DNA of 64,000 nucleotides from Candidatus Daviesbacteria bacterium (GTDB lineage Bacteria > Patescibacteriota > Microgenomatia > Daviesbacterales > UBA10151): positions 7,150 through 71,149 of the forward strand of contig JACPKL010000005.1 in NCBI GenBank assembly GCA_016187035.1, written 5' to 3'. A model generated the notes under the pieces. That model did no database searches and was not told the DNA's origin. It saw only the letters and a program-made list of their open reading frames with translations. The position numbers were made by a program, and so were the translations under genes. Of the stretch, positions 3,331 to 21,575 are shown in pieces (position 1 is the stretch's first letter; each line of letters opens with the position of its first letter).

Positions 3331-6300
3331 TAAAAAAAAGACAATATAGACCAACATTACAAATAATTACAGCACCAAAAGTTGGCAGGCCTAAAAAAAC
3401 TAATGGTGAATATGAACCTAATGGAATAGATAAAAATTCGCGTTCATTTGAAACCAGATTTGTTCCAAGATATAAAAAGATCCCTTCTTTGCCCCGAGGA
3501 CTACCCCAACCTGCTTTTTCTGAGAGTTCAAATAAGATTTTAAAAGAAAGATATTTGTTAAAAGGAGGAAATTTAGAAGTTACAGAAACTGTATCTGAAA
3601 GATTTTGGCATATTGCTTATGATATTGCCTCTGCAGATTTTGATTTCTCAGTTCCTGGCAAGCAAGTTTTTGAGACGGCTAAGCTGTTTTATACCATGAT
3701 GGTTAATCAGGAGTTTTTGCCTAATTCCCCTACTATTATGAATGCAGGCAAACAGAACGGATTACAATATTCAGCTTGTTTTGTTTTGCCTGTTGGTGAT
3801 TCCATCGGGGAAATTTTTGATAGCGTTAAGTATGCGGCACAAATCCACAAATCAGGAGGTGGAACCGGTTTTGCATTTTCCCGTCTTAGACCAAAAGACA
3901 GTATTGTTGCCACAACCGGTGGGGTTGCCTCCGGACCGGTCTCGTTTTTAAGAGTATTTAATGCTGCCACTGAAGCTATCAAACAAGGGGGCTGTTTCTC
4001 TGAAGATGCCTTGATTATGACTCATTTAGGTCTAGTCCCAATTAAAGAGATTGTTGAACAAAAAAGGACTTGGTATGTAGCTACTCATTTAGGCTTACAG
4101 CAAGTTACTGCTAAATTTGATAATGGGCAAAAAAAGCTTTATCAGGTGAAAACCCAGGCTGGTTTTACAGTCAAAGTTACAGCTGGGCATAAGTTTTTAA
4201 CAGCTGATAAAATGGGACATTTTTATCTTAAACCTTTATCTGACTTTCAAGTAGATGATCACTTAACGCTTTTGTTGGGAGCTTGGCCGGAAGATATTCC
4301 TTATGCTTTATTAAATACTGCAATCCCACAAAAATCTAAATACTCTTATGGCAGAATAGATATCAACTTGCCAAAACATCTTGATGAGAAATTGGCTTTT
4401 TTAATTGGTGTTTATCATGCTGATGGCTCAAAGATTTCTGATGAATATTCGCCTAATGGTAAGGGATTAAGAGTCGCTGTAGCAGAAAACAGGCCACAAG
4501 ATTTGCTTAAATTGACCAAAACAATAAAAGATATATTCGGATTGGATTGTACAATTACTAAAGGAGATGGAGCTGTCTATAATGTTAATTGTTTCTCCAG
4601 AAGTGTTAATGAGTTTTTAGCCTTGAACGGATTACTAAAAGAATCCTCAGTGGCAGTTACTGTTCCTGATATGATTTTTACTTCACCTAGAAGGGTGATT
4701 GAATCATACATAGCAGGAGTGTTTTTGGGTGACGGGGGAAATAGAGGGGGTAAGGGTGGGTTTAGGATCTCAACTGTTTCTAAAACCTTTGCACAACAGA
4801 TACAGGTATTACTTTTAAATCTAGGTATTGCCTCAAAAATAGCTGTTGAAAATAGACAAAGCAAGAATTGGAGAGATCTCTATAATGTTACCATTAATGG
4901 TAATCGCTTTATGAAAAAGTTTGCTGTTGTGATTTCTCCATATACTGAAAAAGTTAATGACCATCCAGTTTCTCATAAAGACTACGCCTTTAGGTGGCCT
5001 TTTAATTTAACTGAAAAGTATCTTCATTTATCAGGAATTCAAAGTGTTACTCCGGTTGGTAATATCTCTACTACTCAAAAGACAGTAGCATTTTTGCAAC
5101 AAAACGTAGGCTTTATTAATGAACAGGATCGCAATGACATATCACTCCTTGCCTCATGTGTTTCTGACAAAATTGCCTCTATTGAGTATATAGGGAAAGG
5201 TTATGTTTATGATTTAGAAGTGGGTAACACCCATCTTCTATCAGGAAATGGTTTTTATACCTCAAATTCCAGAAGAGGAGCAAACATGGGGATTTTAAGA
5301 ATAGATCATCCTGATATTTTAGAATTTATCAGGTGTAAAGCAGAGCTTGATGATACTAATAAACCAATATTTGAATCTGTAGCGCCGCTTCTGCCTGATG
5401 ATTCGACTAGAGAATATTTTAAGACTTTGCTTTTAGATAAACAGATTTCCAACTTTAACATTTCTTGTGCTATTACAGAAAAATTCATGGAAGCTTTGGA
5501 AAAGGATAAGGATTATGATTTGATTGATCCACATTCAGGTGAGGCTGTTGGTAAATTAAATGCTAGGCAGGTTTTTGATGAGATAGTGGAAAGGGCCTGG
5601 GCTACAGGAGATCCTGGTTTAATCTTTATTGACAGGATAAACAACTCCCCTGCCAATCCTGTACCATCCCTGGAAACTATTGAAAGCACAAATCCGTGCG
5701 GAGAACAGCCTCTGGCATCTTGGGATGCTTGTAACTTGGGATCAATAAACTTGGGTAAATTTGTTAAGGGAGATGGTAGCGGGGTGGATTGGGAAAGACT
5801 TGGGAACACAGTTAAGCTGGCTGTGCACTTTTTGGATAATGTTGTCCAAACTAACCCCTTTACCTTAAAACAGATTTATGATGAGGTACACCAAAATAGA
5901 AGGATAGGGTTGGGGGTAATGGGCTGGGCTGATATGCTGTTTATATTAAAAATTCCTTATAATTCTGAAGAGGCTTTAAAGTTAGCTGAACAGGTGATGC
6001 AGTTTATTAATGAAGAAGGACATAAGATGAGTGAGGATTTAGCTCAAGTGCGCGGGTCTTTTCCTAATTGGTCGAATTCCATCTATGCTGATGGAAACCC
6101 AATCAGAAACTCAACAATTACCACCATTGCTCCTACCGGAACAATTTCTATAATTGGTGATTGTTCTTCTGGAATTGAACCAGTTTTTGCCTTAGCCTAT
6201 ATTCATAAAGCTAAAAGTGTTGGCGATCAGTATAGAATTTTAACAATTGCTAATCAGACTTTTGCAGAGATAGCTAGAGAAAAGGGTTTTTGGTCTGATG

Positions 6301-7133
6301 ATTTAGCTGAAAAAGTTTTAGAAAAAGGTTCTGTGGCAGGGATACCAGAAGTGCCTGAGGAATGGCAAAAGGTTTTTGTAACTGCTCCAGAGATTGATCC
6401 AATTTTCCATGTAAAGATGCAAGCTGCATTTCAAAAATATACTGATAATGGAGTTTCCAAAACAATTAATTTACCAAATTCAGCAACAGTTGATGATGTG
6501 AGGACAGCTTATATGCTCTCGTACCAGACAGGCTGCAATGGCATTACTATTTACAGAGATGGGTCTAAGGCAGTTCAGGTTTTAAATGTTTCATCTGCTT
6601 TACAGAAAACTCAACAAGAAGTTATTCCTGTGGCTGAGAGGCCAATGATACTGCGTGGCAGAACCTATAAAGTATCTACTCCTGTGGGAGAAGCATTCAT
6701 TACTATTAATAGGGATGAGCAGGATCAACCATTTGAAGTATTTGTGACTGTTGGAAAAGGTGGGATGCATACAATGGCAGATGCTGAAGCAATGGGGAGA
6801 TTGGTTTCTTTATCTTTAAGGTTATCCAGAGCTGGTAAAAGTTTACCAAAGGAAGTTGCTCAAAAAATTACTCAGCAGTTAAGAGGAATTGGAGGAGCTT
6901 CAACAGTAGGGTTTGGGAAAAATAGGGTGATGAGTTTAGCTGATGCAATTGCTAAAGTTTTGTCAGAAGATTCGGCCCAGTCATCAACTGCTCAAACAGC
7001 AGAACCGATACCATTAAATTTAACTTCTTCTTCCAAGACCCAGGCAGATTTGTGTCCTGAATGCGGCAGCGCCTCCTTTGTAATGGAAGAAGGCTGTAAA
7101 AAATGCCATAGCTGTGGATACTCAATGTGTTAA
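3327..7133 (+). CDS. nrdJ: Class II (adenosylcobalamin-dependent) ribonucleotide reductase, interrupted by an intein
   Basis: 1268 aa. Has the extein motif KQGG / SRRGANMG split by the insert, TNPCGEQPL, NLGSINL, and a C-terminal Cys-rich zinc ribbon CPECGS...CKKCHSCG. The extein is 843 aa once the insert is removed. Confidence 0.9.
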   Translation: MIKKRQYRPTLQIITAPKVGRPKKTNGEYEPNGIDKNSRSFETRFVPRYKKIPSLPRGLPQPAFSESSNKILKERYLLKGGNLEVTETVSERFWHIAYDIASADFDFSVPGKQVFETAKLFYTMMVNQEFLPNSPTIMNAGKQNGLQYSACFVLPVGDSIGEIFDSVKYAAQIHKSGGGTGFAFSRLRPKDSIVATTGGVASGPVSFLRVFNAATEAIKQGGCFSEDALIMTHLGLVPIKEIVEQKRTWYVATHLGLQQVTAKFDNGQKKLYQVKTQAGFTVKVTAGHKFLTADKMGHFYLKPLSDFQVDDHLTLLLGAWPEDIPYALLNTAIPQKSKYSYGRIDINLPKHLDEKLAFLIGVYHADGSKISDEYSPNGKGLRVAVAENRPQDLLKLTKTIKDIFGLDCTITKGDGAVYNVNCFSRSVNEFLALNGLLKESSVAVTVPDMIFTSPRRVIESYIAGVFLGDGGNRGGKGGFRISTVSKTFAQQIQVLLLNLGIASKIAVENRQSKNWRDLYNVTINGNRFMKKFAVVISPYTEKVNDHPVSHKDYAFRWPFNLTEKYLHLSGIQSVTPVGNISTTQKTVAFLQQNVGFINEQDRNDISLLASCVSDKIASIEYIGKGYVYDLEVGNTHLLSGNGFYTSNSRRGANMGILRIDHPDILEFIRCKAELDDTNKPIFESVAPLLPDDSTREYFKTLLLDKQISNFNISCAITEKFMEALEKDKDYDLIDPHSGEAVGKLNARQVFDEIVERAWATGDPGLIFIDRINNSPANPVPSLETIESTNPCGEQPLASWDACNLGSINLGKFVKGDGSGVDWERLGNTVKLAVHFLDNVVQTNPFTLKQIYDEVHQNRRIGLGVMGWADMLFILKIPYNSEEALKLAEQVMQFINEEGHKMSEDLAQVRGSFPNWSNSIYADGNPIRNSTITTIAPTGTISIIGDCSSGIEPVFALAYIHKAKSVGDQYRILTIANQTFAEIAREKGFWSDDLAEKVLEKGSVAGIPEVPEEWQKVFVTAPEIDPIFHVKMQAAFQKYTDNGVSKTINLPNSATVDDVRTAYMLSYQTGCNGITIYRDGSKAVQVLNVSSALQKTQQEVIPVAERPMILRGRTYKVSTPVGEAFITINRDEQDQPFEVFVTVGKGGMHTMADAEAMGRLVSLSLRLSRAGKSLPKEVAQKITQQLRGIGGASTVGFGKNRVMSLADAIAKVLSEDSAQSSTAQTAEPIPLNLTSSSKTQADLCPECGSASFVMEEGCKKCHSCGYSMC
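3993..5267 (+). mobile_element. Intein with LAGLIDADG homing-endonuclease domain (425 aa) inside nrdJ
   Basis: Starts at Cys (CFSEDALIMT) directly after KQGG. Has block B TAGH, two LAGLIDADG-like motifs (LAFLIGVYHADGS, YIAGVFLGDGG), block F VYDLEVGNTHLL, and ends ...FYTSN followed by +1 Ser (SRRGANMG). Confidence 0.85.
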
Positions 7134-7165: not shown

Positions 7166-7810
7166 TCAAATTTCTTCTAAAACTTGATGTTTTATTTGTT
7201 CTAATCTTTCTCCGTAATCCACCTGGTCTAAGATATATTGTCTATAATCTTGAGGGTTTTTAAAAAAACCTAAAATTTCCTGTTTAGCACAAAAACCATC
7301 CACCTCACCTAAATATTCCTTATAAGAAGACCATTCATAACTTTCTAAATCTTTTACTAAAAGTGAGACTCTAGGATTCAGATGAATGTATCTGGAAAGA
7401 TGAATTAATTGTTCGTCTTTTTCTATAAGAACAGATTTGAATTCCCCTTGCAGGAGATGACCAATCCTATTATATTTGGCATTGTAATACTTTGTGTAAC
7501 TGTTGCTTATTTTACCCACAAATTCTGTGATTCCTCCATCCACTGACTGTCTGAGTAGCAGATGAAAATGGTTAGGCATCAGACAATAGGAAACAATATC
7601 TACAATCTTTTTAGATGGATCTGGTCTAAAAGTTTGAAATTGAGAAAAATTAGAAAATTTTGGTTTTGGCCCCGAATGCTGATAATAATTTAAAGTTTTT
7701 ATAAATCTTTGGTAATCTCTTCTGCTACTAAAAATTAACCTTTTTTCATTACCACGGTTATAAACATGATAAAAGTAACCATTGGCGAAGGGAAAAATTC
7801 TTGATGGCAT
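7166..7810 (-). CDS. REP-associated / IS200-like Y1 (HUH) transposase
   Basis: YHVYNRGN, HUH motif MPNHFHLLL and catalytic-Tyr region RYIHLNP. 214 aa. Confidence 0.85.
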   Translation of the reverse strand: MPSRIFPFANGYFYHVYNRGNEKRLIFSSRRDYQRFIKTLNYYQHSGPKPKFSNFSQFQTFRPDPSKKIVDIVSYCLMPNHFHLLLRQSVDGGITEFVGKISNSYTKYYNAKYNRIGHLLQGEFKSVLIEKDEQLIHLSRYIHLNPRVSLLVKDLESYEWSSYKEYLGEVDGFCAKQEILGFFKNPQDYRQYILDQVDYGERLEQIKHQVLEEI

Positions 7811-14933: not shown

Positions 14934-15044
14934 GCATATTTAAGAGTAACAAAGCCAGGTTTTCTAATCAACCCCTAGATTAGTTGTTTTAATATCTTGT
15001 GGTTTACCACAATTAGCTTGTTACAACAACCTAATCACCACAAC

Positions 15045-15073
15045 GGTACCAGTGTGGTGTCCACTGTGGTACC
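15045..15073. other. G+C-rich imperfect hairpin at the left edge of the accessory island
   Basis: GGTACCAGTGTGG-TGT-CCACTGTGGTACC: 7 bp, a 2x2 internal mismatch, then 4 bp, with a 3-nt loop. Confidence 0.4.
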
Positions 15074-15146
15074 CCGCAAACCCATACCCCCTTGTCGGCG
15101 AGGTTTCTATCTGCCTTTTATGTACGTTAAGTTTATTCTGATCCCT

Positions 15147-15182
15147 AATACCCCAAATCCCCCCAATCTCCCTAATCCTTCC
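15147..15182. repeat. C-rich direct repeat, copy A
   Basis: AATACCCCAAATCCCCCCAATCTCCCTAATCCTTCC. Reads NTPNPPNLPNPS in frame 0. Partner copy at 16779-16829. Confidence 0.75.
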
Positions 15183-15262
15183 CATGACTCTTCTTATTTC
15201 TGAAGTAGCCCAGCATAAATTAAGGGATTCCCATGGCAGATTTTCCTCAGATCATCTATCCT

Positions 15263-15397: not shown

Positions 15398-15437
15398 AAT
15401 TTAGAATTATATTCCGGAAGAGTATGAAAGTCAAAAG

Positions 15438-16487
15438 CTATAGGCTTGGCACATGTCCTCTAAACCAATCCTCAAGGATTTCTCTATCTCCTGCAAAAGC
15501 GTACTTATCCCATGCCTTAACAAGCTCCATTTCAGCATCAATGTCTTTTTTTATCTGCAACCAGTCAATCATAGGCAAGCCTCTTTTATGAAGATAATTA
15601 TCCACAAGGGTTCTAGTCATTGTGCCGTTATAATCCGGATGGGGATGGATGCCAATATATGTTCCGTATATCCATGCAAGTGAGATTGGGTCATATGGAT
15701 CAGGTTCTTGCAACAACTCATTATATTGAGGAAGAAAGTGATTTTCTATAACTCTTCTTCTCATAGTTGCAGAACTATGCGTGACGAGGTAGCGTAATCT
15801 CGGATTTCTGCAAAAACTATTTAACAGCGTATCACCCTCTGTATCTAGCGCTCTGAAAACCGGTACAGTAGTTGCATTTGGACGGATCGCTCTGACTGTT
15901 TGCTGATACACATATTCAATATCATCAATATCTACTTTTGGCTGTAATTCTTGCAAATACCCAAGATTACCTACTCTGGCTTCTTCTTTTGCCTCTGCCT
16001 CCAACTGTTTTCCATTTACCCAAACCACACTTGCCATAGCTGTTAACCAATCTGCTCCATCTCCAAAGTCCTCGCTAAAATCAAATCTGGCTCCGAATTC
16101 TACAGGGTCAAGTTTGATTCCTAAAGGATACATTTCATCCCGCTTGCCCAAAAGTAATCTGGTTTCGCTGTGAACAAGTTTTGCAAATCCAATAACTTCC
16201 AATTGTGATTGCGATAATTCAGGCTGTTTTGATAATGACAACGCATGGTCAGTCAGATCAGGTTCAATAGTAGTCCAGTTATGAGAGCGTGTATAGTCAA
16301 AAATAGCGCGATAACGTCTCCTTGATAATTCTCCCCTTAAATCATGATGCATTTCTACAACTGAATTTCTTAAGTGAGGCGCGGTATCTAAATTATTAGC
16401 AACAGCATTTGCCCATTGAAGAACAGGATGTGCTAAAGATGTTGCCTGATGGCTAGATAGTCCTAGTTCATTATCTGGTATAAGCAT
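15438..16487 (-). CDS. Divergent Fic/DOC-fold protein
   Basis: C-terminal IHPHPDYNGTMTRTLVDNYLHKRGLPMI aligns to the Fic core HPFxDGNGRxxRLLxNxxLxxxGxPPI. His, Asp, Asn-Gly and the final Arg are kept; three positions are substituted. Sampled lines give 43-48% G+C. Confidence 0.6.
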   Translation of the reverse strand: MLIPDNELGLSSHQATSLAHPVLQWANAVANNLDTAPHLRNSVVEMHHDLRGELSRRRYRAIFDYTRSHNWTTIEPDLTDHALSLSKQPELSQSQLEVIGFAKLVHSETRLLLGKRDEMYPLGIKLDPVEFGARFDFSEDFGDGADWLTAMASVVWVNGKQLEAEAKEEARVGNLGYLQELQPKVDIDDIEYVYQQTVRAIRPNATTVPVFRALDTEGDTLLNSFCRNPRLRYLVTHSSATMRRRVIENHFLPQYNELLQEPDPYDPISLAWIYGTYIGIHPHPDYNGTMTRTLVDNYLHKRGLPMIDWLQIKKDIDAEMELVKAWDKYAFAGDREILEDWFRGHVPSL

Positions 16488-16718
16488 GTGCGGTATTATA
16501 CTCGATTATCCTATAGGAGTCAAAATATAGTTGATTTATGCCTCAAAGAATTTTTTTACAGGAATTTTGATCTTTACATTAGAATCTACTTTTGTATCAT
16601 CTTTTCTATAATTAAGACAAAATTTCCAAATGTATGAGAGCAAAATAATCAAAGCAGGTATAATCAGAGATAGACCAAATATTTCATCTAAACTGCAACT
16701 TATGGTAACTTTAAATAT

Positions 16719-16964
16719 ATGAGCAAACTAATTACTATTTCAGAGAATTTACTTCAAGATATCTTACCTCATGTTAAAAATACTCCGAACCCTTATCCCC
16801 CAAATTCCCCTAATCTCCCTAATCCCTCTTCTATTGAACTAGCAAGGTTAGGTATGGCCCAAGTTGTAGTTTACCAACACAAAAGACCATTTATCTATCA
16901 AGACCAATTACTCAAACTTCAGGAAGAAGCCAAAAAGAAAAAACTCGGCATGTGGAGCTCGTAA
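16719..16964 (+). pseudogene. Thermonuclease (SNase) C-terminal remnant fused to the PNP-rich repeat
   Basis: ELARLGMAQVVVYQHKRPFIYQDQLLKLQEEAKKKKLGMWS matches the SNase C-terminus (pattern LVRQGLAKV...AQAKKEKLNIWS). The N-terminal catalytic part is absent. Confidence 0.55.
16779..16829. repeat. C-rich direct repeat, copy B
   Basis: AATACTCCGAACCCTTATCCCCCAAATTCCCCTAATCTCCCTAATCCCTCT (NTPNPYPPNSPNLPNPS). The core AATCTCCCTAATCC lies exactly 1647 nt (549 codons) from its copy at 15165. Confidence 0.75.
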
Positions 16965-17035: not shown

Positions 17036-17503
17036 ATGAGCGAAATTATCTATGTTCTGACAAATGAAGCCATGCCTGGCTATGTAAAAGTTGGCAGAAC
17101 TTCAACTAATCTTGAACAAAGAATTCGGGAACTTAATGCTTCAACCAGTGTTCCGTTACCATTCACTGCCTTTTATGCTTGTACAGTTGAAAATGCCCAA
17201 TTCGTCGAACATCAACTTCATGACGCTTTTGATGATAACAGAGTTAACCCGAAACGAGAATTTTTCCGCGTTGCGCCTGAACGGGTTGTTGCGGCTTTAA
17301 AACTTGCAGAGATAGAAAACATAACACCTAAGAGCGATATTGTAGAAAACAAAGAGGATCAAGAAGCTCTTGATGCTGCAAGGAAAATACGGAGTAGATT
17401 TAGTTTTGAGATGGCCCAAATTCCCCTAGGTGCGGAAGTCTACTTCAGCCGAGATGAAAACAAAAAAGCAAAGGTTATAACCTTGCCTAATTTCATAATT
17501 TAG
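17036..17503 (+). CDS. T5orf172 / GIY-YIG-like domain protein, probably C-terminally truncated
   Basis: IIYVLTNEAMPGYVKVGRTSTNLEQRIRELN...FRV is the T5orf172 signature. It ends abruptly at 155 aa. Confidence 0.65.
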   Translation: MSEIIYVLTNEAMPGYVKVGRTSTNLEQRIRELNASTSVPLPFTAFYACTVENAQFVEHQLHDAFDDNRVNPKREFFRVAPERVVAALKLAEIENITPKSDIVENKEDQEALDAARKIRSRFSFEMAQIPLGAEVYFSRDENKKAKVITLPNFII

Positions 17504-17790
17504 GCAGTATCTATCTTATAACTACTGTAGGTTTAATTGTCAAGTAAATTGTTTTATTGTAACAATGTTTAATATATTTACTCTAAAGTAAGTTCATTAC
17601 TCAAAATCAATAAAACAGAAAGACAGAAAAGAAAAAGCGAAAATTTCCGGAGGAAGGATTAGTTTAAAGCGAACCGCACTGAATAAAATCAGAATATTGA
17701 CATTCGGCTATAGTCCTGAGTCTTGCCGAAGGGTGATTTATGGATTAAAGTAAGCATAGCTTGCCTTTTAAAATAAAACGTAGAATTTGT

Positions 17791-17925
17791 ATGAAAAAAA
17801 GCAGACAAATTATTAAACAAAACAGCTTCACCGAGTTTTTGCACGAGAAATCAGTTAGTTCCATTTTGGAACATACTGCCAAAGACGGCAAGAAATATAA
17901 AACCTTTTGCTTGAATTATGAATAA
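17791..17925 (+). pseudogene. RhuM-family gene fragment
   Basis: Manual translation gives ...SVSSILEHTAKDGKKYKTFCLNYE, resembling the RhuM middle segment (compare FRITALDGKSYETKHYNLD in the next ORF). Confidence 0.4.
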
Positions 17926-18726
17926 AAATACTCAAAAACCGCAAATTGTCATTTATCAGGTAATTGGCGATAAACAAAAAATTAGTGTCAGAATTGAAGA
18001 TGAAAATGTGTGGTTGACGCAAAAACTAATTGCGGAACTTTTTAATGTCAGCATTCCCACGGTTAATGAGCACCTGAAAAATATATTTGAAAGCGGTGAA
18101 TTAGATGAAAATTCAGTTATTAGGAATTTCCGAATAACTGCTTTAGATGGCAAGAGTTATGAAACGAAACACTATAATTTGGATACGATTTTGGCGGTGG
18201 GTTATCGCGTGAAGTCTGAACAGGGCACACAATTCCGTAAATGGGCTACAGAAAGACTACGGGAATATCTTATCAAAGGGTTTACAATGGATGACGAACG
18301 TCTTAAGCAAGGTGGCGGCAGGGCTCGTTACTTTCAGGAATTACTGCAGCGGATACGTGATATCCGAAGCAGTGAGCGGATGTTTTATCAGAAAGTAACC
18401 GATATTTACGCAACGAGCATTGATTATAAACAAGCGGGCAGATAGTAAAAAACCATTGATGGGTCTGATGAGTTTTAAAAGCGATTATATTACCATTGAC
18501 GATATAGTAGTGGCTAAAAATTATTTAAACGAGAATGAACTCAATCAATTAAATCTGATCGTTTTCTGAAAAAAAATTATTGCATTCGGCCGGCAGGATA
18601 AGCGCCAAGCAGGCAGAAAAGAAAGCATTGGCGGAATATGAAAAGTACCGCAAAGAACGGGATAAAAAATATATTTCAGATTTCGACCGCGAAGTGAAAA
18701 AACTTTTGAAGAGAGCAAGGAAATAA
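17918..18726 (+). pseudogene. RhuM-family virulence-associated protein, frameshifted with an internal deletion
   Basis: 17918-18445 encodes the N-terminal two thirds (VWLTQKLIAELF, YNLDTILAVGYRVKSEQGTQFRKWATERLREY). The rest is readable only in other frames (MGLMSFKSDYITIDDIVVAKNYLNENELNQLNLIV; AEYEKYRKERDKKYISDFDREVKKLLK). Confidence 0.7.
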
Positions 18727-18767
18727 ATGATTAAATTATCGAGGTCGAAATTAGAATTACTTTTTGA
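18721..18767. repeat. 47-bp inter-cassette direct repeat, copy 1
   Basis: AAATAAATGATTAAATTATCGAGGTCGAAATTAGAATTACTTTTTGA. 45/47 identical to 19609-19655. Confidence 0.85.
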
Positions 18768-18779
18768 ATACAATTAATT

Positions 18780-19622
18780 ATGAAACGGGCGAAAGTTAAA
18801 TTAGCAATTTTTGAAGGTCGAAAAATCCGTCGTCATTGGGATGAGAAAGCGGAGAAATGGTATTTTTCGGTGGTGGATATTATTGCTGCGTTGACCAATA
18901 GCAGCAATCCGCAGGTTTATTGGCGCGTGTTAAAAAAACGCTTAATTGATGAGGGTTCAGGTAAAACCGTTACAAAATGTAACGGTTTGAAAATGTTGGC
19001 AGCTGACGGCAAAATGCGTATAACGGATGTAGCGGATACGGAAACAGTTTTTCGAATCATCCAGTCTATCCCTTCACCAAATGCCGAGCCGTTTAAGTTA
19101 TGGCTCGCCCGCGTGGGATACGAGCGTGTAGAGGAAACTGAAGATCCGGAAAGGGCTATCAACAGGGCTATGCAAACCTATCTCAAGAAGGGTTATTCAC
19201 GGGAGTGGATCAACCAACGGCTTAAAAGTATTGAGATACGGAAAGGTCTGACTGACGAATGGGAAAAACGAGGAGCAAAGGAGGGACTGGAATTTGCAAC
19301 TCTCACTGACGACATTACTTTTGCCTGGGCTGGTCTTACCACAAAACAGTATAAACGCCATAAGGGATTAAAGATGCAAAGTTTACGGGATAATATGACC
19401 AATCTTGAGCTGGTTTTAAATATGCTGGCAGAAGTGAGCACAACAGAAATATCACAAAAAGAAGAACCCGATACTTTTGACAAAAACAGGAACGTTGCCA
19501 GACGGGGCGGCGGTGTAGCGCGTGTGGCCCGAAGGAAAATAGAAATAGAGACCGGAAAGAAAGTAATCAGCGAGTCAAATTATCTTTCACAAGATAGGAA
19601 GAAATTAAAAATAAATGATTAA
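18780..19622 (+). CDS. BRO-N domain protein (prophage antirepressor-like)
   Basis: FEGRKIRRHWDEKAEKWYFSVVDIIAALTNSSNPQVYWRVLKKRL is the BRO-N pattern. 280 aa. G+C higher than the host background. Confidence 0.6.
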   Translation: MKRAKVKLAIFEGRKIRRHWDEKAEKWYFSVVDIIAALTNSSNPQVYWRVLKKRLIDEGSGKTVTKCNGLKMLAADGKMRITDVADTETVFRIIQSIPSPNAEPFKLWLARVGYERVEETEDPERAINRAMQTYLKKGYSREWINQRLKSIEIRKGLTDEWEKRGAKEGLEFATLTDDITFAWAGLTTKQYKRHKGLKMQSLRDNMTNLELVLNMLAEVSTTEISQKEEPDTFDKNRNVARRGGGVARVARRKIEIETGKKVISESNYLSQDRKKLKIND

Positions 19623-19655
19623 ATTATCAAGGTCTAAATTAGAATTACTTTTTGA
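19609..19655. repeat. 47-bp inter-cassette direct repeat, copy 2 (followed by hairpin 19655-19673)
   Basis: AAATAAATGATTAAATTATCAAGGTCTAAATTAGAATTACTTTTTGA, then ATCCCGAT-TTA-ATCGGGAT (8-bp stem). Confidence 0.85.
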
Positions 19656-19676
19656 TCCCGATTTAATCGGGATTGA

Positions 19677-19940
19677 ATGTCCTTGTTGTTTTTGATGGCT
19701 ATGAAAAAGAGAGGTTTACAAGTGGATAAAAATCAAATTATTATCTACGAATCAGATGATGGCAAGGCGCGGGTAGAGGTGCGTTTTGAAAATGAAAATG
19801 TGTGGTTGACTCAAGCGCAGATGGCAGAATTATTTGACAGAGATCAATCAGTCGTTTCAAAACATATTAAAAACGTATTAGACGAGAAAGAACTTGATGA
19901 AAAAAGCAATATGCAAAATTTGCATACGGCAAACCACTAA
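19677..19940 (+). pseudogene. RhuM-family N-terminal fragment
   Basis: IIIYESDDGKARVEVRFENENVWLTQAQMAELFDRDQSVVSKHIKNVLDEKELDEKS parallels residues 9-65 of the 17918 ORF, then terminates. Confidence 0.6.
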
Positions 19941-19998
19941 CTAATGAAGATAGGAAATTAGTAGATACTCCAAAAACTCTAATGATATAATTTTCTTT

Positions 19999-21504
19999 AT
20001 GACTCTAGCCGGACAGAAGGCATACAGTGTTGATGAAATCAGAAAGTCTTTTGCCAAAGCCTATGCTCCATGGACGAAGGATGAAGATACAATACTTAAA
20101 AGTGCTTATGAAGAGTTTGTTAAATTAAACCAACCAGAGGAGAATTTTATTGCGAAGCAAGAAGCTCGCTTCATTTTAGAATATGCCAAAAAGTTTGGCA
20201 GAAAACCAGGTGGTATCAGATCCCGAATTACTAAACTACTAAATGGAGAAATTACATACAGAAAAACACAAACTGATTTAAAAAGTCTCTCTGCTAATAT
20301 TGTTTCATCATCTCAATTTAACCAAGTAACTCTTCCAGAATATTTATCTTCAGATCAAAAATTTGTTTTAGAATCCTTGCTTTCCTGGGTCAGAAATCCT
20401 AAAAATGGTTTCATCACAGTCGGTGGTTATGCTGGAACTGGCAAAACCACGATTACTTCTGTTCTGAGAGTTTTACTTAAAAAACAATCTCCAAACCTAT
20501 CAATTAGCTTTGCCTGCTTTACTGGTAAAGCCAGTATAGTATTAAAGTCTAAATTAATAGAACAGAAAGCTATTTTTAACGGAGATACCATTGGGACAAT
20601 CCATTCTTTAATGTATAAACCAAGAATTGATAAAAATGGTCAGATTATTGGTTGGAGAAGGGTTAGTAAAATTGATGCAGATTTAATTATTGTTGACGAA
20701 GCCTCAATGGTCACTAAAGATATGTGGCAAGACCTATGCTCTTACAATATTCCAATTATTGCTATTGGTGACCATGGACAGCTTCCCCCTGTTGGAGATA
20801 CTTACAGTTTAATGGATAATCCAAGTCTTAAGTTAGAAACAATCCATAGGCATGCTCAAGACAATCCAATTTTACAAATAGCTACTCTTGCCAGAACTAC
20901 AGGACAAATTCCTTTTAAAGAATTTTCTCCTTTTGTTAAAAAAGTTCCCAGAGGCACAACTGATGCTCAAGAAATCATAGATAATATTTTTAGTAATTTT
21001 AATGAGAATACCTTAATCCTTTGTGGTAGAAATACAACCAGAGTTAAACTAAACCAACAAATCAGACAGAAAATGGGTTTGACATCAGATGAGCCAATAA
21101 TTGGCGAAAGAGTTATCTGTTTAAAAAACAATTACAAAAATTTAACCAGACCAATCTACAATGGCATGATTGGAAAATTAGTTAAACTTGCTCCTTCTGA
21201 CAAACATTGGTATGAAGCAGAAATTATCTTTCAAGATGACCCAGAACCTTTTCAAGGTAGAATCTCAAAATACCAATTCCATAAAGAAAAATATTTAGAA
21301 GAAGTCAAGGGTATTCACTATACAGAGATTGGTGACAGGTTTGATTTTGGTTATGCCTTAACAGTCCATAAATCTCAAGGTTCCCAAGCAGATATAGTTT
21401 TACTTTTTGAGGAACCATCAACTTATTGGGAAGATGAGCTATGGAATAGGTGGCTCTATACAGCAGTTACCAGAGCAGTTAAGCAGTTATATATTATCAG
21501 GTAG
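19999..21504 (+). CDS. RecD/Pif1-like superfamily 1 DNA helicase with an N-terminal extension
   Basis: Walker A GGYAGTGKTT, Walker B VDEASMV, GDHGQLPPV, TVHKSQGSQAD. About 130-aa N-terminal region with a Myb/SANT-like APWTKDEDTIL. Confidence 0.8.
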   Translation: MTLAGQKAYSVDEIRKSFAKAYAPWTKDEDTILKSAYEEFVKLNQPEENFIAKQEARFILEYAKKFGRKPGGIRSRITKLLNGEITYRKTQTDLKSLSANIVSSSQFNQVTLPEYLSSDQKFVLESLLSWVRNPKNGFITVGGYAGTGKTTITSVLRVLLKKQSPNLSISFACFTGKASIVLKSKLIEQKAIFNGDTIGTIHSLMYKPRIDKNGQIIGWRRVSKIDADLIIVDEASMVTKDMWQDLCSYNIPIIAIGDHGQLPPVGDTYSLMDNPSLKLETIHRHAQDNPILQIATLARTTGQIPFKEFSPFVKKVPRGTTDAQEIIDNIFSNFNENTLILCGRNTTRVKLNQQIRQKMGLTSDEPIIGERVICLKNNYKNLTRPIYNGMIGKLVKLAPSDKHWYEAEIIFQDDPEPFQGRISKYQFHKEKYLEEVKGIHYTEIGDRFDFGYALTVHKSQGSQADIVLLFEEPSTYWEDELWNRWLYTAVTRAVKQLYIIR

Positions 21505-21575
21505 CGCGTACGGGAGTTGAACCCGTGATCTTCACGTTGAGAACGTGACGTCCTGGACCGCTAGACGAACGCGCC
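21502..21575 (-). tRNA. tRNA-Glu (anticodon CUC)
   Basis: Manual cloverleaf of 74 nt. Acceptor GGCGCGU/ACGCGCU (G1-U72 wobble), D stem GUCU/GGAC, anticodon stem UCACG/CGUGA with loop UUCUCAA, 5-nt variable loop, T arm ACGGG-UUCAACU-CCCGU, discriminator A. CCA is not encoded. Confidence 0.85.

Follow-up and report, generated by a model that had tools for sequence, protein, structure and literature searches.

In a 64,000-nucleotide stretch of the Candidatus Daviesbacteria bacterium assembly GCA_016187035.1 (contig JACPKL010000005.1, positions 7,150 to 71,149; hereafter the window), we describe a minus-strand gene whose 349-residue product belongs to a very divergent subfamily of Fic proteins; its named members are so far all Patescibacteria, and it carries the signature HPHxDxNG(T/S)xxR. 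Motif changes on the Fic fold have led to new modifications: Doc phosphorylates, AnkX phosphocholinates and AvrB rhamnosylates. The family described here combines a catalytic core under strong selection with the loss of the first motif arginine and the replacement of the motif phenylalanine by histidine, and is thus a clearly delimited candidate for a further chemistry. On balance, and by a modest degree, we favour a stand-alone, active Fic-fold transferase whose donor would not be bound in the canonical AMP-transfer mode. The open reading frame (ORF) itself, reported in the initial annotation, which had been made from the DNA letters without database searches, is real; it lies on the minus strand and starts with ATG, and its product is identical to the NCBI hypothetical protein HYW41_01465 of Candidatus Daviesbacteria bacterium (Patescibacteria/Microgenomates group).

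Homology to Fic proteins can be detected from the query alone, for which phmmer returned BT_2513 (PDB 3cuc, E = 0.0026) in an alignment that keeps the motif in register (query IHPHPDYNGTMTRTLV, 3cuc IHPFEDGNGRIARLLV). Used as a profile, an alignment of 21 family sequences matched 3cuc at E = 6.5e-9 and FICD at about 1e-4, followed by SoFic, IbpA and NmFic. With the same alignment, hhalign gave probabilities of 97-98% and E values of 1e-10 to 1e-13 against five class II Fic proteins (controls that are bona fide proteins taken from plasmids), the confident stretch running from about residue 185 to the C terminus. Fifteen of the 21 family members match the Pfam family PF02661 (Fic/DOC) at E ≤ 1, with a best E value of 3.3e-7, and membership of PF02661 is, on this sequence evidence, detectable only at the level of the family; PHROG gave no matches for the query. 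Taken together, these alignments make the inference of Fic homology solid. A low-confidence part of the hhalign alignment paired query residues 113-127, which contain no conserved Glu, with the ‘IEGNTLT’ segment of class II proteins, and we set this pairing aside as too weak either way. Separately, a control class II Fic protein on the Mycetohabitans megaplasmid NZ_CP062179.1 (locus L019, 772-1572) has Tyr for the catalytic His (IYPFVDGNGRTGR) and still has a SNAIEG inhibitory motif, another natural variant of the motif.

Predicted structures agree with this assignment. AlphaFold models built from 6 and 21 sequences had predicted local distance difference test (pLDDT) scores of 79 and 90 (90.2) and predicted template modelling (pTM) scores of 0.76 and 0.88, respectively. 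Among the best 50 Foldseek matches in the PDB, all 50 were Fic proteins for the first model and 49 for the second, with target-normalised template modelling (TM) scores of 0.5-0.6 to the small Fic proteins VbhT, Bep1, EfFic and HpFic over about 190-215 columns; alignments with whole small Fic domains extend over about 190-225 columns. The models show a predicted all-alpha fold with an alpha4-loop-alpha5 active-site element, and the Fic fold in them spans roughly the C-terminal two-thirds of the protein, beyond the short core. The initial annotation had proposed profile or structure searches as a check, and named the lack of Fic similarity in them as what would overturn it; hhalign and Foldseek both give Fic, and the assignment thus survives. 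Its view that a C-terminal Fic core was the only recognisable feature was correct as to Fic and too narrow as to ‘only’, since whole small Fic domains align and the confident hhalign stretch starts at about residue 185.

The family departs from known Fic proteins in the active site. In the canonical motif HxFx(D/E)GNGRxxR, His is the catalytic base, Asp/Glu is the Mg2+ ligand, Phe fastens the loop to the hydrophobic core, the first Gly (Gly1) is needed sterically, Asn both touches the alpha-phosphate and steadies the loop, the second Gly (Gly2) sits where phosphate binding allows no side chain, and the last Arg (Arg2) binds the gamma-phosphate or, in the inhibited state, the inhibitory Glu (PMC3667792, PMC8401265). 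In each of the three Fic classes, the beta-phosphate receives two hydrogen bonds from the first Arg (Arg1; PMC3667792). A survey that recognised five motif groups among 1883 Fic/Doc sequences found Arg1 retained in all five (PMC4454073). The query lacks the complete canonical motif. Aligned to HPFEDGNGRIAR of 3cuc, both by phmmer and by the family profile, it keeps His, Asp, Asn, Gly2 and Arg2 and has His for Phe, Tyr for Gly1 and Thr for Arg1, exactly as had been read from the letters.

These departures are shared and conserved. All 21 motifs read H-P-H-x-D-(Y/G/A/C/F)-N-(G/N/A/H)-(T/S)-(M/I/T)-x-(R/K), so that Phe is replaced by His and Arg1 by Thr or Ser in 21/21 members, and Gly2 (position 288) is lost in four, to Asn, His or Ala and never to Lys. 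The 21 sequences diverge down to 25% identity, yet seven columns never vary (Y277, H281, P282, H283, D285, N287 and W309), six of them at residues 277-287, and R292 is nearly invariant. Selection is thus centred on the loop of the active site, a pattern that speaks against a pseudo-site in decay, and the conserved His, Asp, Asn and last Arg argue for what would be an active enzyme. A motif with His for Phe and Thr/Ser for Arg1 appears to be undescribed, because it falls in none of the five groups of PMC4454073, all of which keep Arg1, and because the degenerate Bartonella Beps keep PFxxGN.

The replacement of Gly1 by Tyr, also part of the initial annotation, is real in the query and does not hold as a family feature: Tyr at 286 is confined to the query’s subclade, and more distant members keep Gly (HPHxDGNGT). 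In 20 of 20 sequences residue 202 tracks residue 286, being Arg where 286 is Tyr, and Tyr where 286 is Gly, Ala, Cys or Phe; Tyr286 also tracks residue 275 (Gly versus a larger residue) and residue 137. The pattern suggests a tyrosine ‘swap’ between two neighbouring elements, that is, a compensated change rather than decay. Residue 202 opens what we take as the flap-equivalent loop, in which P203 is conserved, an F-R pair (F211-R212) lies near the end, and a weak HMMER stretch pairs the loop with ‘VDPVE’ of FICD.

Ahead of the confidently aligned part, residues 1-185 have no sequence match in the PDB, Pfam or the N termini of class II Fic proteins, in line with the earlier statement that this region matches nothing recognisable. 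Five of its residues are invariant among 17 sequences (W25, D146, L148, E163 and K167), and of these we infer E163 and K167 to be candidate active-site or regulatory residues. E163 precedes the catalytic His by 118 residues, the inhibitory Glu of the class II controls by 128-149, and helix counting places E163 at the beginning of alpha1, outside the alpha-inh position. Regular-expression searches found the inhibitory motif (S/T)xxxE(G/N) in no full-length member, apart from two matches at non-homologous positions, and in no flanking ORF of at least 25 residues at 7 loci. The inhibitory helix that defines Fic inhibition classes I-III, carried by an upstream antitoxin in class I, N-terminally in class II and C-terminally in class III, was thus found neither in the protein nor in flanking ORFs, and the initial annotation, which saw none in the protein or downstream ORF, can be extended to the homologues and the small ORFs that flank them.

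The family is small. When 1.84 billion cluster representatives were scanned exhaustively with HMMER, only 23 matched, giving about 20 family clusters, and a profile search of a word-indexed protein database added no further members. Among the matches, a 5622-residue adhesin-like repeat protein (P0019) with 19 matched stretches has no Fic motif and was discarded as a repeat or composition artefact, and P0023 and P0024, considered as separate N-terminal-only architectures, were rejected as truncated fragments. Full-length members have 339-379 residues and a single common architecture, and the named ones comprise two Daviesbacteria and the ‘Patescibacteria group’. Their surroundings vary: one locus has SBP and UvrC neighbours, another PPDK and a TPR protein, another an M23 peptidase and, two genes away, a serine recombinase, another an epimerase and pyruvate kinase with HicAB close by, and yet another a tRNA-like sequence and a GIY-YIG gene. 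The search for orthologues and their neighbourhoods that had been proposed at the outset thus yielded about 20 clusters and, across family loci from other metagenomes and metagenome-assembled genomes, no conserved gene neighbour. At one locus (L016, on a 251-kb metagenome contig), the ORF translation ‘GEVSEWSKE...’ at about 5645-5815, upstream of the homologue at 5881-6945, suggests a tRNA gene directly upstream of it; a small GIY-YIG gene lies downstream.

From the observed fold, homology and conservation, and from the lack of a canonical inhibitory motif or partner, we infer an enzyme that would work as follows. His281 would deprotonate the hydroxyl of the target, and Asp285-Mg2+, together with Asn287 and the alpha5 anion nest, would hold the reacting phosphate. 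Because Arg1 is lost, and in some members Gly2 too, ATP would probably not be held in the canonical AMP-transfer geometry, so that a different phosphate-linked group might be transferred or the donor might be bound in a different orientation. The patchy distribution of the gene and its association with an island suggest that the protein has an accessory function, in toxicity, in defence or as an effector, and not a housekeeping one.

Several observations weigh against this reading. The Foldseek E values are modest (best 3e-4), and the query itself has no Pfam Fic match even at E ≤ 1. The flap-equivalent loop is coil in the AlphaFold2 model, in which DSSP assigns no beta-hairpin of the kind that registers the target in canonical AMPylating Fic proteins, and the covariation of Tyr286 could be purely clade-defining through shared ancestry. 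As for an accessory role, the defence or toxin context is inconsistent between loci, and no family members were found in IMG/VR or GenBank phages. Finally, K167 could supply the missing positive charge, in which case canonical AMPylation could survive. The protein would then be an ordinary AMP transferase, with Arg1 replaced in space by a basic residue such as K167, or by the Thr/Ser hydroxyl with Mg2+. Such an enzyme would fit the retention of His, Asp, Asn, Gly2 and Arg2 in most members, the resemblance of the conserved F-R pair to the canonical flap (F/Y)R, the invariance of both K167 and E163, and the automatic annotation of one member by the Joint Genome Institute as ‘fido (protein-threonine AMPylation protein)’. 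We nevertheless hold it to be unlikely, given that in all three classes it is Arg1 that contacts the beta-phosphate (PMC3667792), that no catalogued group lacks it (PMC4454073), and that the four members with Asn, His or Ala at Gly2 carry residues considered incompatible with triphosphate binding (PMC8401265).

The loss of Arg1 would be less surprising if the protein removed a modification. In a hydrolase or ‘eraser’ (a de-AMPylase or phosphodiesterase), His281, the Asp285-bound metal and E163 would activate water, much as Glu234 does in FICD, and a beta-phosphate-binding arginine would therefore be unnecessary. E163 is invariant and precedes the catalytic His at a spacing not far below that of the class II inhibitory Glu, and PMC6408439 describes a conserved Glu as supporting deAMPylation in FICD and EfFic. 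Yet E163 starts alpha1 rather than alpha-inh by helix counting, it lacks the (S/T)xxxE(G/N) context, its placement near the active site has no spatial support, and Arg2 is conserved although it would be equally unnecessary for hydrolysis, all of which make this explanation quite improbable. The same motif departures might instead mark a scaffold or binding protein with a Fic fold that no longer catalyses, comparable to the FIC domain of BepC that binds GEF-H1: there are three of them, including the structural Phe and Gly1 that are strict even in degenerate Bep FIC domains (PMC8401265), and the missing Pfam match of the query points the same way. However, the residues most strongly conserved in the family are precisely the catalytic His, Asp and Asn together with the His and Thr/Ser that replace Phe and Arg1, which is unexpected for a dead site, and we regard this option as highly improbable. 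An active transferase with non-canonical donor binding is the likeliest of these chemistries.

The biological role is a separate question from the chemistry. The gene and the small acidic ORF downstream of it might form a toxin–antitoxin or abortive-infection pair of the SoFic/AS1 type, carried on an inserted cassette bounded by repeats. In EcSofic a 47-residue antitoxin gene lies immediately downstream (PMC12249575), which serves as an analogy and a lead rather than as evidence. The ORF noted in the initial annotation does exist, having been called by gene callers on five independent metagenome contigs, and it starts close behind the Fic-like gene (Table 1) with its own promoter-like TTGACT-17-TATAAT site at 15406-15434. 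Direct repeats of 56 nucleotides bracket both genes, with a core 17-mer that occurs 3 times versus 0.32 expected, and a truncated SNase gene adjoins the second copy; neighbouring genes match PADLOC candidate-defence families. Against such a pair, the 44-residue ORF has no counterpart beside any homologue and is unique to this locus, the query matches no PADLOC SoFic model, its sole PADLOC match being a weak one to the Fic model PDC-S04 (PDLC04839, 5.5e-5 over the Fic core), and the repeats are just 80% identical. Nor is there an integrase between the repeats or a sign of excision, as all five contigs have the same junctions and are 100% collinear with the window, with no circle, empty site or other junction at the repeats. 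We therefore rate a toxin–antitoxin cassette as distinctly unlikely.

The sites at 16495-16523 and 15406-15434 on the minus strand, which precede the Fic-like gene and the small ORF, each have 11/12 matches to TTGACT-17-TATAAT and end 7-8 nucleotides before an ATG, which suggests leaderless or near-leaderless transcripts, although they are consensus matches only, of which 9 were found versus 8.1 expected in the region. Both repeat copies can be read in frame on the plus strand as a ‘...PNxPNLPNPS’ peptide.

Table 1. Coordinates in the window of the Fic-like gene, its parts and the neighbouring features.
Feature	Position	Strand	Remarks
Fic-like gene, 349 residues	15438..16487	minus	ATG-start ORF
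N-terminal region, residues 1-185	15933..16487	minus	Helical, family-specific; residues 1-16 modelled as disordered
E163...K167, invariant	15987..16001	minus	N terminus of helix 162-180
Flap-equivalent loop, residues 202-216 (RPNATTVPVFRALDT)	15840..15884	minus	Between helices 187-201 and 217-225
Active-site motif HPHPDYNGTMTR (H281-P-H-P-D-Y-N-G-T-M-T-R292)	15612..15647	minus	Residues 281-292; alpha4-alpha5 loop and start of alpha5
Promoter-like site TTGACT-17-TATAAT	16495..16523	minus	Ends 7 nt ahead of the Fic-like ATG; leaderless-like
Acidic ORF, 44 residues	15263..15397	minus	Starts 40 nt downstream of the Fic-like stop codon
56-nt direct repeat, copy 1	15126..15181	plus	80% identity between copies
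56-nt direct repeat, copy 2	16773..16828	plus	Ends 7 nt before the start of the truncated SNase remnant
Accessory gene cluster	17036-21575		Beside tRNA-Glu(CTC) at 21500-21575 (minus), which overlaps the helicase stop codon

The Fic-like gene is followed downstream by genes for a PAS-HAMP histidine kinase and a response regulator, oriented as it is, and upstream of it lie the SNase remnant, a T5orf172/GIY-YIG-like gene, RhuM, Bro-N, a RecD-like helicase and tRNA-Glu. The SNase remnant (ORF 16719-16964, 81 residues) covers only about the last 40 positions of the SNase profile (67-107), and no recognisable N-terminal half of the gene was found upstream of repeat copy 1; Rfam gave no matches in the flanks of the Fic-like gene. 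PADLOC candidate-defence models match the T5orf172/GIY-YIG-like gene (PDC-S57, 5e-54), Bro-N (PDC-S13, 9e-128) and the RecD/PIF1-like helicase (PDC-M16A, 5e-39). The RhuM gene (PF13310, PADLOC PDC-S05; window 17918-18726) is split into at least two ORFs, 17918-18445 covering profile positions 1-110 and 18420-18569 covering 138-184, and looks like a frameshifted pseudogene. The cluster is a possible defence or mobile island, and the rearranged, island-like stretch beside the Fic-like gene lends some support to a mobile origin.

Base composition does not add to this. The initial annotation called the gene foreign-looking on the basis of 43-48% G+C in sampled lines against a background of about 30%, which was overstated: the background is about 35% (34.7% for the window, and a mean of 35.2% with a standard deviation of 4.0 for 49 long ORFs), and the Fic-like ORF, at 40.3% (z = 1.3), is therefore not a compositional outlier. 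Its G+C at third codon positions (GC3) is 30% versus 26% (z = 0.8), and its 60-nucleotide lines range from 32% to 47%; the highest GC3 among the long ORFs examined is that of Bro-N, at 41%. It is thus the patchy distribution and the island-like setting, not composition, that make the case for mobility.

Two further stretches of the window stood out. Between the start of the histidine-kinase gene and the 44-residue ORF, positions 14940-15262 have 41-45% G+C and a strong C-skew on the plus strand, contain a near-palindrome at about 15045-15075, match no Rfam family and, as a minus-strand RNA, fold better than shuffled sequences (z = -3.1, with 0/100 as good); the segment could be a structured leader, a 3′ untranslated region or a small RNA. 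Far from it, an IS200-like Y1 transposase domain (PF01797, 1.7e-8; 7166-7810, minus strand) sits among the housekeeping genes for Lon protease, H+-pyrophosphatase and a corrinoid adenosyltransferase.

In Patescibacteria, whose relations with hosts and phages are little understood, few enzymes can be recognised as candidate toxins or effectors, and this protein is one of them. At its most far-reaching, this would be the first Fic-fold lineage to replace both Arg1 (by Thr/Ser) and Phe (by an invariant His) with the catalytic His, Asp and Asn retained, and to catalyse a reaction undescribed for Fido enzymes, as an accessory toxin, effector or defence protein of ultra-small Patescibacteria, a proposal that we put forward tentatively, as a minority possibility. 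Were it true, the reaction might, for example, be transfer from a non-triphosphate donor or the metal-dependent removal of a nucleotide modification. Should the protein turn out to be an ordinary AMP transferase, Arg1 would be dispensable, which would itself be useful for motif-based function prediction.

Among known systems, class II Fic proteins (BT_2513/3cuc, SoFic/3eqx and human FICD/HYPE) are the best matches to the query in both sequence and structure. They share with it a similar length, a helical N-terminal extension and an alignable alpha2, flap lead-in and alpha4-loop-alpha5, whereas the query has HPHxDxNG(T/S)xxR in place of HPFx(D/E)GNGRxxR, lacks the N-terminal (S/T)xxxE(G/N), has 185 N-terminal residues that are unrelated in sequence, and carries no TPR or HTH domains. 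As in the SoFic anti-phage system, a stand-alone Fic-fold gene lies by defence-candidate genes with a small ORF downstream (44 residues here, 47 in AS1 of E. coli; PMC12249575). Unlike in that system, the small ORF is not shared across the family, the motif is non-canonical and the PADLOC SoFic model, which canonical class II controls match at 1e-28 to 4e-51, is unmatched.

The initial annotation had compared the substituted motif with those of Doc and AnkX. The substitution is real and conserved, and the analogy is loose, since the switch in Doc is Gly2 to Lys and AnkX depends on a CMP-binding domain. The Doc toxin of P1 Phd-Doc is a Fic-fold kinase in which an altered motif changes donor orientation and chemistry, an example of how small changes re-purpose the fold. 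Its motif, HxFx(D/N)(A/G)NKR, has Lys for Gly2 and keeps Arg1 (PMC4177925), whereas the query does the reverse, keeping Gly2 and losing Arg1. Doc also lacks a flap, has about 125 residues and is preceded by the Phd antitoxin, features that the query does not share; with no small same-strand ORF upstream of the Fic-like genes, the family does not group with Doc kinases. AnkX uses a non-ATP donor on the Fic fold with the same catalytic residues, and besides ankyrin repeats it requires a CMP-binding domain as an insertion (PMC4177925, PMC4454073), on which its inverted donor binding relies (PMC4177925). Apart from a sub-threshold HEAT match, Pfam finds no domain in the query, which is thus not of the AnkX type. 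The degenerate motifs of the Bartonella Beps, such as Glu at Gly2 in Bep8 and Lys for Asp/Glu in BepC, are also conserved departures, and have been interpreted as new functions. The Beps keep PFxxGN strictly (PMC8401265), whereas the family described here has changed Phe in all members and Gly1 in the query’s clade, and it stands apart from them in having neither BID or OB domains nor a FicA-type antitoxin.

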